Shown here: one piece after another, positions 33,390 through 37,050 of the stretch
How the letters are laid out: each line of letters opens with the position of its first letter
Numbering within the stretch: the first letter of the stretch is position 1
NCBI RefSeq assembly: GCF_044324875.1
Contig: NZ_CP172185.1
Length of the DNA stretch: 64,000 nucleotides
Direction: 5' to 3' (one strand)
Source: Escherichia coli
Lineage (GTDB): Bacteria > Pseudomonadota > Gammaproteobacteria > Enterobacterales > Enterobacteriaceae
Notes under the pieces: generated by a model
The model's input: the letters and a program-made list of their open reading frames with translations, nothing else
Database searches by the model: none
Told to the model about the DNA's origin: nothing
Translations under genes and position numbers: made by a program

Positions 33390-33417
33390 CGGCACCTTTT
33401 ATGTAGCGAAGGTGCCG
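33390..33417 (+). terminator. hairpin downstream of cysB
   Basis: CGGCACCTT-ttatgtagcg-AAGGTGCCG 9-bp stem; weak T tract. Confidence 0.45.
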
Positions 33418-33691
33418 GAATATATTCTCTTTTGTTGCTTATTTGTATACCGTGCACAATATTTTTATCCCTCATATTTATAGGGTAAATTACCTGTAAA
33501 GTAGTGTCTAATTACCCGCCTCGCAAACTCCAGTTTTCAAATATCTATTTCAGGTCAAAAGATTGAATTATTCACTGGAGACGATTCGTAAATTCGCTGG
33601 ATTTTTGACTAAAGTTTCTTTAGGATTTGTCTCATCGTATGATTAATTACACCAATCGTTCAACGTCTTGCTGATAAGTGATGCCGATTAT

Positions 33692-33832
33692 ATGAGGTTA
33701 GCAATGCCTTCTGGAAATCAGGAACCCCGCCGGGACCCTGAATTAAAACGCAAAGCCTGGCTGGCGGTATTTCTTGGTTCTGCTCTTTTCTGGGTGGTTG
33801 TCGCACTGCTGATTTGGAAAGTGTGGGGATAA
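33692..33832 (+). CDS. ymiA: small membrane protein YmiA (46 aa)
   Basis: MRLAMPSGNQEPRRDPELKRKAWLAVFLGSALFWVVVALLIWKVWG read from sequence; single TM helix; matches remembered YmiA. Confidence 0.7.
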   Translation: MRLAMPSGNQEPRRDPELKRKAWLAVFLGSALFWVVVALLIWKVWG

Positions 33833-33834
33833 CT

Positions 33835-34002
33835 ATGGTCGGTCAGGAGCAACTGGAGTCGTCACCATTATGTCAGCAAAGTGATGATGAACCAGAAACG
33901 AAACGGGAATGTTCCGTCGTTATTCCAGACGACTGGCAACTAACATCGCAGCAGCAAGCCTTTATAGAACTGTTTGCTGAAGATGATCAGCCGAAACAAT
34001 AA
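33835..34002 (+). CDS. yciX: small acidic protein YciX (55 aa)
   Basis: ATG 2 nt after ymiA stop (GGATAACTATG); translation MVGQEQLESSPLCQQSDDEPE... Confidence 0.7.
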   Translation: MVGQEQLESSPLCQQSDDEPETKRECSVVIPDDWQLTSQQQAFIELFAEDDQPKQ

Positions 34003-34115
34003 TTATCATCATTCTTATTACCCATTTTTAATGAATTAAAGGGCTTTTAATACACCGCAGCAATAACAGGTTGAGTTATCTCAACACAAAGTAATAACCG
34101 TTAAAGGTGTAGCCT

Positions 34116-34211
34116 ATGATCAACACAAATATGAAATATTGGTCCTGGATGGGCGCATTTTCTCTGTCGATGCTCTTCTGGGCCGAACTCCTCTGGATCA
34201 TTACTCACTGA
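34116..34211 (+). CDS. candidate 31-aa hydrophobic small protein (possibly the K-12 small protein in the yciX-acnA gap)
   Basis: SD AAAGGTG 6 nt before ATG; MINTNMKYWSWMGAFSLSMLFWAELLWIITH; intrinsic terminator 8 nt after stop. Confidence 0.45.
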   Translation: MINTNMKYWSWMGAFSLSMLFWAELLWIITH

Positions 34212-34218
34212 TCCCTGA

Positions 34219-34239
34219 CCCCGCTGCGGCGGGGTTTTC
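34219..34239 (+). terminator. intrinsic terminator after small ORF
   Basis: CCCCGC-tgcg-GCGGGG followed by TTTTC. Confidence 0.7.
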
Positions 34240-34374
34240 ATTTGCTTTGCCACAAGGTTTCTCCTCTTTTATCAATTTGGGTTGTTATCAAATCGTTACG
34301 CGATGTTTGTGTTATCTTTAATATTCACCCTGAAGAGAATCAGGGCTTCGCAACCCTGTCATTAAGGAGGAGCT

Positions 34375-37050
34375 ATGTCGTCAACCCTACGAGAAGCCAG
34401 TAAGGACACGTTGCAGGCCAAAGATAAAACTTACCACTACTACAGCCTGCCGCTTGCTGCCAAATCACTGGGCGATATCACCCGTTTGCCTAAGTCACTC
34501 AAAGTTTTGCTCGAAAACCTGCTGCGCTGGCAGGATGGTAACTCGGTTACCGAAGAGGATATCTACGCGCTGGCGGGATGGCTGAAAAATGCCCATGCTG
34601 ACCGTGAAATTGCCTACCGCCCGGCAAGGGTGCTGATGCAGGACTTTACCGGCGTACCTGCCGTTGTTGATCTCGCTGCAATGCGCGAAGCGGTTAAACG
34701 CCTCGGCGGCGATACTGCAAAGGTTAACCCGCTCTCACCGGTCGACCTGGTCATTGACCACTCGGTGACCGTCGATCGTTTTGGTGATGATGAGGCATTT
34801 GAAGAAAACGTACGCCTGGAAATGGAGCGCAACCACGAACGTTATGTGTTCCTGAAATGGGGAAAGCAAGCGTTCAGTCGGTTTAGCGTCGTGCCGCCAG
34901 GCACAGGCATTTGCCATCAGGTTAACCTCGAATATCTCGGCAAAGCAGTGTGGAGCGAATTGCAGGACGGTGAATGGATTGCTTATCCGGATACACTCGT
35001 TGGTACTGACTCGCACACCACCATGATCAACGGCCTTGGCGTGCTGGGGTGGGGCGTTGGTGGGATCGAAGCCGAAGCCGCAATGTTAGGACAGCCGGTT
35101 TCCATGCTTATCCCGGACGTAGTGGGCTTTAAACTCACCGGAAAATTACGTGAAGGTATTACCGCCACAGACCTGGTTCTCACCGTTACCCAAATGCTGC
35201 GCAAACATGGCGTGGTGGGGAAATTCGTCGAATTTTATGGTGATGGGCTGGATTCACTACCGTTGGCGGATCGCGCCACCATTGCCAATATGTCGCCAGA
35301 ATATGGTGCCACCTGTGGCTTCTTCCCAATCGATGCTGTCACCCTCGATTACATGCGTTTAAGCGGGCGCAGCGAAGATCAGGTCGAGTTGGTCGAAAAA
35401 TATGCCAAAGCGCAGGGCATGTGGCGTAACCCGGGCGATGAACCGATTTTTACCAGTACGTTAGAACTGGATATGAATGACGTTGAAGCGAGCCTGGCAG
35501 GGCCAAAACGCCCACAGGATCGCGTTGCACTGCCCGATGTACCAAAAGCATTTGCCGCCAGTAACGAACTGGAAGTAAATGCCACGCATAAAGATCGCCA
35601 GCCGGTCGATTATGTTATGAACGGACATCAGTATCGGTTACCTGATGGCGCGGTGGTCATTGCTGCGATAACGTCGTGCACCAACACCTCTAACCCAAGT
35701 GTGCTGATGGCCGCAGGTTTGCTGGCGAAAAAAGCTGTAACTCTGGGCCTCAAGCGGCAACCGTGGGTCAAAGCGTCGCTGGCACCGGGTTCGAAAGTCG
35801 TTTCTGATTATCTGGCAAAAGCGAAATTGACACCGTATCTCGACGAACTGGGGTTTAACCTTGTGGGATATGGTTGTACCACCTGTATTGGTAACTCTGG
35901 GCCGCTGCCCGATCCTATCGAAACGGCAATCAAAAAAGGCGATTTAACCGTCGGTGCAGTGCTGTCCGGCAACCGTAACTTTGAAGGCCGTATCCATCCG
36001 CTGGTTAAAACCAACTGGCTGGCCTCGCCGCCGCTGGTGGTTGCCTATGCGCTGGCGGGAAATATGAATATCAACCTCGCATCTGAGCCTATCGGCCATG
36101 ATCGCAAAGGCGATCCGGTATATATGAAAGATATCTGGCCATCGGCACAAGAAATTGCCCGTGCGGTAGAACAAGTCTCCACAGAAATGTTCCGTAAAGA
36201 GTACGCAGAAGTTTTTGAAGGCACAGCAGAGTGGAAGGAAATTAACGTCGCACGATCCGATACCTACGGTTGGCAGGAGGATTCAACCTATATTCGCTTA
36301 TCGCCTTTCTTTGATGAAATGCAGGCAACACCAGCACCTGTGGAAGATATTCACTGTGCGCGGATCCTCGCAATGCTTGGGGATTCAGTCACCACTGACC
36401 ATATCTCTCCGGCGGGCAGTATTAAGCCCGACAGCCCAGCGGGTCGATATCTACAAGGCCGGGGTGTTGAGCGAAAAGACTTTAACTCCTACGGTTCGCG
36501 GCGTGGTAACCATGAAGTGATGATGCGCGGCACCTTCGCCAATATTCGCATCCGTAATGAAATGGTGCCTGGCGTTGAAGGGGGGATGACGCGGCATTTA
36601 CCTGACAGCGACGTAGTCTCTATTTATGATGCCGCGATGCGCTATAAGCAGGAGCAAACGCCGCTGGCGGTGATTGCCGGGAAAGAGTATGGATCAGGCT
36701 CCAGCCGTGACTGGGCGGCAAAAGGTCCGCGTCTACTTGGTATTCGTGTTGTGATTGCCGAATCGTTTGAACGAATTCACCGCTCGAATTTAATTGGCAT
36801 GGGCATCCTGCCGCTAGAATTTCCGCAAGGCGTGACGCGTAAAACGTTAGGGCTAATCGGGGAAGAGAAGATTGATATTGTCGATCTGCAAAGTCTACAA
36901 CCCGGCGCGACGGTTCCGGTGACGTTTACGCGCGCGGATGGTAGCCAGGAAGTCGTACCCTGCCGTTGTCGTATCGACACCGCGACGGAGTTGACCTACT
37001 ACCAGAACGACGGCATTTTGCATTATGTCATTCGTAATATGTTGAAGTAA
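34375..37050 (+). CDS. acnA: aconitate hydratase A
   Basis: 891 aa; Fe-S cluster cysteines in aconitase family context. Confidence 0.97.

Follow-up and report, generated by a model that had tools for sequence, protein, structure and literature searches.

The 31-codon open reading frame (ORF) that lies between yciX and acnA in the stretch of Escherichia coli DNA analysed here (termed the window: 64,000 nucleotides of contig NZ_CP172185.1, assembly GCF_044324875.1) is, with high confidence, ymiC (b4741 in K-12), a genuine coding gene for the 31-residue inner-membrane protein YmiC. The gene is already known: it was named in 2018, is present in RefSeq, NCBIfam and Pfam, and is covered by a survey of small proteins expressed at low Mg2+. 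The locus thus serves mainly as a positive control, in which an interpretation of the raw nucleotide sequence (termed here the sequence-only reading) found a genuine 31-codon gene and discarded a longer, overlapping ORF. New but minor are the description of a terminator that varies between strains, statistics on the orthologs of ymiC, and the interpretation of the RNA family STnc180 as a segment of the ymiC mRNA.

A known gene between yciX and acnA

The sequence-only reading proposed that, within an AT-rich gap between yciX and acnA, an ATG preceded by AAAGGTG opens a 31-codon ORF, and it guessed that the product might already be catalogued in studies of K-12 small proteins. Both the ATG at 34116 and the AAAGGTG are located in the sequence (Table 1), with the start codon at 34116-34118 and the stop codon, TGA, at 34209-34211; the gap is indeed AT-rich, with a G+C content of 41% overall and 33% upstream of the ORF versus 50% for the window. 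The guess proved right: the encoded peptide, MINTNMKYWSWMGAFSLSMLFWAELLWIITH, agrees letter for letter with the YmiC entry of VanOrsdel et al. 2018 (PMC6001520), who place K-12 ymiC between yciX and acnA at 1335572-1335667, coordinates that correspond to those of the ORF. The RefSeq ymiC CDS of a 100%-identical E. coli genome maps exactly to window positions 34116-34211, and the arrangement in MG1655 (ymiA, b4522; yciX, b4523; ymiC, b4741; acnA, b1276) is the same.

Curated family models lead to the same assignment. With the NCBIfam equivalog model for YmiC, NF041484, the score is 66.3 bits (cutoff 42; E 1.2e-18), with residues 3-31 aligned to positions 2-30 of the 30-position profile, and the Pfam model PF23694 (YmiC-like) scores 87.5 bits against a gathering threshold of 27 (E 4.5e-25), with residues 1-31 aligned to profile positions 1-31. 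By megablast, region 33900-34450 is present in 5421 of 5426 complete E. coli genomes; among the matches listed, yciX, ymiC ('small membrane protein YmiC') and acnA are annotated beneath the match in 25 of 25 genomes, and the nearest relatives come mostly from swine, with ETEC-named and O139:H1 strains among them. Because coordinates, peptide, neighbours and family models all agree with the K-12 entry, the ORF is assigned to this known gene.

Table 1. Features of the ymiA-acnA region (window coordinates)
Feature	Position	Strand	Description and basis
ymiA	33692..33832	+	first operon gene, 46-aa putative membrane protein; RefSeq transfer, NF000536 (96.8 bits), PF22868 (125.9 bits)
yciX	33835..34002	+	second operon gene, 55 aa; RefSeq annotation
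Rfam RF02079 STnc180 match	34043..34245	+	ymiC leader, CDS and terminator
Conserved single-stranded-looking motif, TACACCGCAGCAATA	34051..34065	+	near-invariant columns TACAC..CAGCA.T in 39 aligned Enterobacteriaceae sequences
Small hairpin upstream of ymiC, GTTGAG-TTAT-CTCAAC	34070..34085	+	structure conserved, sequence not
Shine-Dalgarno-like AAAGGTG	34103-34109	+	6 nt from the G of GGTG to the ATG
ymiC CDS	34116..34211	+	31 aa plus stop; RefSeq, NCBIfam, Pfam, conservation
Intrinsic terminator	34217..34245	+	8-bp stem, 4-nt loop, then TTTTCATTTGC; predicted by consensus scan and folding, conserved in position
acnA (aconitate hydratase A)	34375..37050	+	downstream neighbour, 163 nt past the ymiC stop

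K-12 YmiC has the same 31-aa sequence, strand, neighbours and slot between yciX and acnA, and the locus in the window differs from it in nucleotides only: the 221-bp segment 34040-34260 is 97.3% identical to that of a K-12-derived (O16:H48) genome, and the differences from MG1655 include AAAGGTG in place of AAGGGTG at the Shine-Dalgarno (SD) position, a synonymous change in the codon for Ala14, and TTTT in place of TTGT after the hairpin that follows the gene. The neighbouring yciX product, which RefSeq names 'YciX family protein', was matched by no Pfam or NCBIfam model.

The peptide was described by the sequence-only reading as Trp-rich, hydrophobic and resembling a single-pass small membrane protein, a description that its composition bears out. 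It contains four Trp residues and has a GRAVY of 0.61; its best 19-residue Kyte-Doolittle window (1.54) spans residues 12-30, within a hydrophobic stretch of about residues 10-30 that is the one predicted bilayer-spanning segment, and GFP-YmiC, tagged on the predicted cytoplasmic N-terminus, is seen at the cell periphery (PMC11429745).

Selection on the reading frame

By itself a 31-codon ORF is not beyond what chance would produce, since the 1.6 kb from 33400 to 35000 has 33 overlapping ORFs of 20 aa or more, so that comparative and published evidence has to carry the case. The abundance of such ORFs, together with an SD of only moderate strength, is what speaks for regarding this one as a chance ORF in an AT-rich spacer ahead of the upstream operon's terminator, and thus as no gene at all. 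Against this stand the conservation of frame and length in about 20 genera at a pN/pS of 0.35, the matches to curated models and the published detection of the protein. Accordingly, the probability left to a chance ORF is negligible, and that reading is regarded as excluded by the published protein detection, the NF041484 and PF23694 matches and the codon-like pattern of substitution.

Conservation of the frame across Enterobacteriaceae, which the sequence-only reading had put forward as a check, was examined in two ways. A phmmer search with YmiC against 1.84 billion cluster representatives returned only 10 clusters at E<=1e-3, all of them enterobacterial-looking and 27-33 aa in length, except for one 63-aa read-through variant. 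Among four divergent representatives, PF23694 matches ymiC in all four and the order cysB-ymiA-yciX-ymiC-acnA occurs in three (P0004, P0007 and P0009, Kosakonia included); in the fourth (P0010, Yokenella-type) no gene is called between ymiA and ymiC. A 56-aa ORF is called in that interval in three of the four divergent lineages, and none is called there in the Yokenella-type loci (L013-L015).

In addition, one genome per species was scanned with a degenerate DNA pattern encoding K-Y-W-S-W-x-x-(A/V)-F, which yielded 90 stretches, 80 of them returned as loci. These are nearly all from Enterobacteriaceae, and their genera include Escherichia, Citrobacter, Enterobacter, Kosakonia, Leclercia, Lelliottia, Cedecea, Buttiauxella, Atlantibacter, Siccibacter, Franconibacter, Yokenella, Trabulsiella, Phytobacter, Pluralibacter, Pseudenterobacter, Silvania and Dryocola. 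Four hits (in Saprospiraceae, Fermentimonas, Hyunsoonleella and a Clostridia MAG) were dropped as chance matches, and a fifth, on a 454-bp 'Terrisporobacter' contig, was dropped as being actually E. coli sequence. The sample used below consists of 74 usable loci with 71 distinct cores. Because the search pattern itself fixes residues 7-15, their invariance is not counted as evidence; only residues 16-31 are unbiased.

The frame passed this check at all 74 loci: in every one the core, which starts at K7, has 25 codons (78 nt with the stop), with no variation in length. Per site, pairwise differences average 0.33 at codon position 1, 0.16 at position 2 and 0.48 at position 3, and the core has a pN/pS of 0.35, a ratio to be read with pS near saturation. 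Outside the search pattern, S18 and W22 are invariant in 71 of 71 distinct cores; of these, 68 have Q or E at position 24, 67 have F at position 21 and 57 have W at position 27. This pattern of substitution indicates that the YmiC peptide is under purifying selection, and the residues S18, W22, Q/E24 and, mostly, W27 make up a polar/aromatic face of the predicted helix that is conserved across about 20 genera of Enterobacteriaceae.

The same comparison bears on the 60-aa ORF at 34139..34321, which, as the sequence-only reading noted, lies in another frame and crosses the hairpin downstream of ymiC. Of the two alternative forward frames of the core, which include that of this ORF, one is interrupted by internal stops in 38 of the 71 cores and the other in 16. 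The preference expressed earlier for the shorter ORF is thereby upheld, and the 60-aa ORF is rejected as a gene: its frame is not that of the conserved peptide, and it reads through the terminator.

Transcription and translation of ymiC

Two further checks that had been suggested, ribosome profiling and chromosomal tagging, were already published with positive outcomes for K-12 YmiC: the protein was identified through chromosomal epitope tagging in K-12 and was an unannotated positive in a ribosome-profiling screen that used tetracycline (VanOrsdel et al. 2018, PMC6001520). According to a 2025 preprint (PMC11429745), YmiC is also among 17 small proteins induced under Mg2+ starvation, and a start-site footprint of ymiC is detected at low Mg2+. 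This induction depends on PhoQ/PhoP and is driven from the region upstream of ymiA; DNA directly upstream of ymiC shows negligible promoter activity in reporter assays, for which reason the authors of that study read ymiA-yciX-ymiC as one operon with ymiC as its third gene. Neither deletion nor overexpression of ymiC affected growth at low Mg2+ (PMC11429745). All of this expression evidence comes from K-12, from which the SD of the window strain differs by one base.

In the window, a consensus scan of the + strand between 33400 and 34500 found no sigma-70-like promoter, and inspection by eye of the conserved motif within the yciX-ymiC spacer found no convincing -35/-10 spacing. The negative promoter scan agrees with the negligible reporter activity just upstream of ymiC.

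The claim that ymiC has an SD of its own holds as to its presence; as to strength, the SD is modest. The duplex between AGGUG and the anti-SD is worth -3.9 kcal/mol in the window, versus -5.9 for the commoner E. coli allele, AAGGGTG. Many of the 39 orthologous sequences have a GGTG(T) block aligned shortly before the start. In Enterobacter-type spacers, A-rich runs resembling AATAAATAA are visible by eye ahead of the SD.

The STnc180 segment

The leader, coding region and terminator of ymiC together match the Rfam family RF02079 (STnc180) over the full model (1-208 of 208) with a score of 201.8 bits, against a gathering score of 50. This family, which is filed as a small RNA, was defined from Salmonella cDNAs that co-immunoprecipitated with Hfq (Sittka et al. 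2008). Hence the segment 34043-34245 might be a regulatory, Hfq-binding RNA, either instead of or besides coding for YmiC--a reading to which the high-scoring, full-length match and the Hfq-recovered origin of the family lend some weight, as do two elements of the spacer that the peptide leaves unaccounted for: the near-invariant motif at 34051-34065 and the structure-conserved hairpin that follows it. On Northern blots, however, Sittka et al. 2008 found no discrete small RNA but only species of 500-2000 nt, which they judged to be likely processed mRNA; the Rfam consensus line itself translates as a YmiC-like peptide, and substitutions within the ORF are patterned by codon; and the RNA segment has no known target or phenotype. 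A regulatory RNA is accordingly considered very unlikely. Because the bands seen were long and the consensus encodes YmiC, the match in the window is most readily understood as part of the ymiA-yciX-ymiC mRNA.

The leader hairpin begins 8-10 bases past the TACAC..CAGCAAT motif. Of 39 orthologous spacers, 38 have a hairpin at this place, and its stem sequences are unrelated; its median dG is -7.9 kcal/mol, its median z is -2.6, and it is part of the STnc180 consensus structure. Motif and hairpin might act as a processing site, as a site for Hfq or a small RNA, or as a weak attenuator. From the MAFFT-aligned yciX-ymiC spacers RNAalifold derived no structure, a result attributed to variation in loop and stem lengths; the sequences were therefore folded one by one instead.

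The hairpin downstream of ymiC and its alleles

A clean intrinsic terminator had also been described just after the ORF. Its elements are all present in the window, namely CCCCGC (34219-34224), the loop tgcg (34225-34228), GCGGGG (34229-34234) and TTTT (34235-38), and a consensus terminator scan detects the hairpin, which folds at -16.4 kcal/mol (z = -2.7 versus shuffles). The distance from the stop codon to CCCCGC is 7 nt; when the stem is extended to 8 bp (GACCCCGC/GCGGGGTT, 34217-34236), 5 nt are left. The sequence thus has the form of an intrinsic terminator--that is, an 8-bp stem with 6 G-C pairs and a 4-nt loop, followed by TTTTCATTT--with a short U-run after the stem, consisting of 4 U and then C. 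What does not stand is the word 'clean' as applied to the species: this form is a minority allele within E. coli, and part of the terminator is missing from roughly one strain in five.

The TTTT tail of the window is rare by comparison: 4,930 genomes match an 80-nt query across the hairpin, and only 927 of these reach an identity of 99% or more. Most E. coli carry TTGT rather than TTTT, with TTGTCATTT after the stem; the K-12 allele after the stem is GGGGTTGTCATTT, and the full-length matches at 97.5% identity among those listed are consistent with this tail allele being the common one. The window's TTTT is a better U-run than K-12's TTGT. A third allele is a 14-bp deletion (window 34227-34240, CGGCGGGGTTTTCA) that removes the 3' arm and the T-run of the terminator and leaves the ymiC ORF intact; it is carried by strains such as SF-088, Nissle 1917 and the type strain ATCC 11775, whereas the window has the intact form. 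Inasmuch as the intact 80-nt query is covered to at least 80% in 4,253 of about 5,421 genomes, some 1,170 (~21%) carry the deletion.

Among the orthologs, the scan asked for a stem of 5 bp or more, including three or more G-C pairs, that lay no more than 70 nt from the stop and had four or more T among the 8 nt after the hairpin. Such a hairpin with a T-run follows the ymiC stop at 63 of the 74 loci, and four further loci (L022, L037, L045 and L062) were missed only through the way in which the scan scores T-runs and loop lengths. The distance from stop to stem has a median of 5 nt and is 9 nt or less at 54 of the 63 loci. There are 39 distinct pairs of arms (for example, ACCTCGC/GCGGGGT, CGCCCGG/CCGGGCG and CCCGAC/GTCGGG), so that pairing has been maintained as the sequence of the stem changes. 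From these comparisons the hairpin would appear to be the ancestral terminator of the ymiA-yciX-ymiC unit, which in E. coli is probably leaky and partly lost. Functionally, it would end most ymiA-yciX-ymiC transcripts and so shield acnA, an insulation that in E. coli is probably leaky as well.

Is acnA coupled to ymiC?

The short spacing between stop codon and stem puts the stem within reach of a terminating ribosome, the footprint of which is of well-established size. This raises the alternative that ymiC is mainly an upstream ORF (uORF), or leader, whose translation tunes read-through past the hairpin into acnA, the peptide being secondary. On this alternative, a ribosome that pauses or terminates at the UGA, only 5 nt away from the stem, would make termination weaker by covering the 5' arm, and the transcription concerned would be that from the ymiA promoter and from the distal acnA promoter, P1. 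The latter promoter reportedly lies ~407 bp upstream of acnA, a position inside yciX, so that P1 transcripts would include ymiC.

Beyond the short and conserved distance from stop to stem (median 5 nt), this alternative draws on the inclusion of ymiC-acnA among validated small ORFs that have an RNA 3' end less than 200 nt downstream and that are, as such, candidate uORF regulators (Adams et al. 2021); in the supplementary table of that study, the excerpts around acnA flag the 3' end at K-12 1335835 (window 34379) as 'uORF'. Like uORF attenuators such as mdtU-mdtJI (Adams et al. 2021), ymiC is a small translated ORF that precedes a larger gene and has an RNA 3' end downstream; it differs from them in that YmiC is a conserved, stable membrane protein and in that no alternative, anti-terminator structure was found. 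As to the latter, thermodynamic folding of a single sequence (34003-34250) gave no pairing between a terminator arm and any other segment, in the MFE or in the centroid structure, and the ORF holds no GCGGGG-like complement of the terminator's 5' arm. Moreover, a pure leader would need neither purifying selection along the whole peptide, with its invariant residues, nor a product that accumulates and sits in the membrane.

The remaining evidence against a leader concerns the position of the RNA 3' end and the state of the hairpin. The 3' arm of the terminator is absent from ~21% of E. coli. The proximal acnA promoter presumably lies downstream of the ymiC hairpin, which likewise counts against tuned read-through. 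The mapped 3' end, scored as not Rho-dependent in the excerpts of the Adams et al. table around acnA, falls at the acnA start codon, 168 nt downstream and off the ymiC hairpin. Altogether, then, a role mainly as a leader is judged unlikely, and the reading of ymiC as a gene for a membrane protein is preferred.

The 3' end at window 34379 is four bases into acnA and ~20 nt past a hairpin, CAGGGCTTCGCAACCCTG (34341-34358). It does not qualify as a classical terminator and might arise by processing or protection at the acnA ribosome-binding site. The table excerpts around acnA give no RNA 3' end between K-12 1333823 and 1335835; the ymiC hairpin is expected near K-12 1335690, where the K-12 tail is the weaker TTGT, and the cultures used by Adams et al. 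were not Mg2+-starved.

A further proposal is that the short, conserved distance from stop to stem makes termination dependent on translation of ymiC. If that were so, transcription driven by PhoQ/PhoP or by the distal acnA promoter would reach acnA in proportion to ribosome traffic on ymiC, the TTTT, TTGT and 14-bp-deletion alleles would set the degree of coupling, and the leader at 34051-34085 could add control at the RNA level, through binding of Hfq or a small RNA or through processing. This proposal is regarded as quite doubtful; were it true, natural terminator alleles would grade the coupling between Mg2+ stress and aconitase A.

A possible role in the membrane

For the YmiC protein itself, the conserved residues suggest a mode of action. 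A helix of about residues 9-30, with its N-terminus predicted to be in the cytoplasm, would dock on a larger membrane protein within the bilayer via the S18/W22/Q-E24/W27 face. By analogy with the PhoP-regulon proteins MgtS and MgrB, such docking on a partner is probably how YmiC acts. The likeness to these two proteins lies in low-Mg2+, PhoQ-dependent induction, in membrane localisation and, for YmiC, in a single predicted helix; MgrB and MgtS have known partners and overexpression phenotypes, whereas YmiC has neither.

Exceptional ymiC sequences

Three sequences depart from the usual form of the locus. In the 63-aa cluster representative (P0001), the YmiC stop codon has become a Cys codon and the 14-bp deletion is present, so that translation continues for 32 codons, into the frame of the window's 60-aa ORF. 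In E. coli EC261 (NZ_AP027423.1), an IS1A lies inside ymiC (L004:2592-3449), and the resulting pieces are a 'hypothetical protein' of 16 aa and a truncated 'YmiC'; because this complete genome carries IS1 within the gene, ymiC is dispensable in at least one isolate. Lastly, the 454-bp contig NZ_JAHZMP010000227.1 (L029), from an assembly of Terrisporobacter mayombei (Clostridia), encodes a YmiC peptide identical to that of E. coli and carries the K-12-type SD, AAGGGTG, together with TCCTTG; that assembly is almost certainly contaminated with E. coli DNA.
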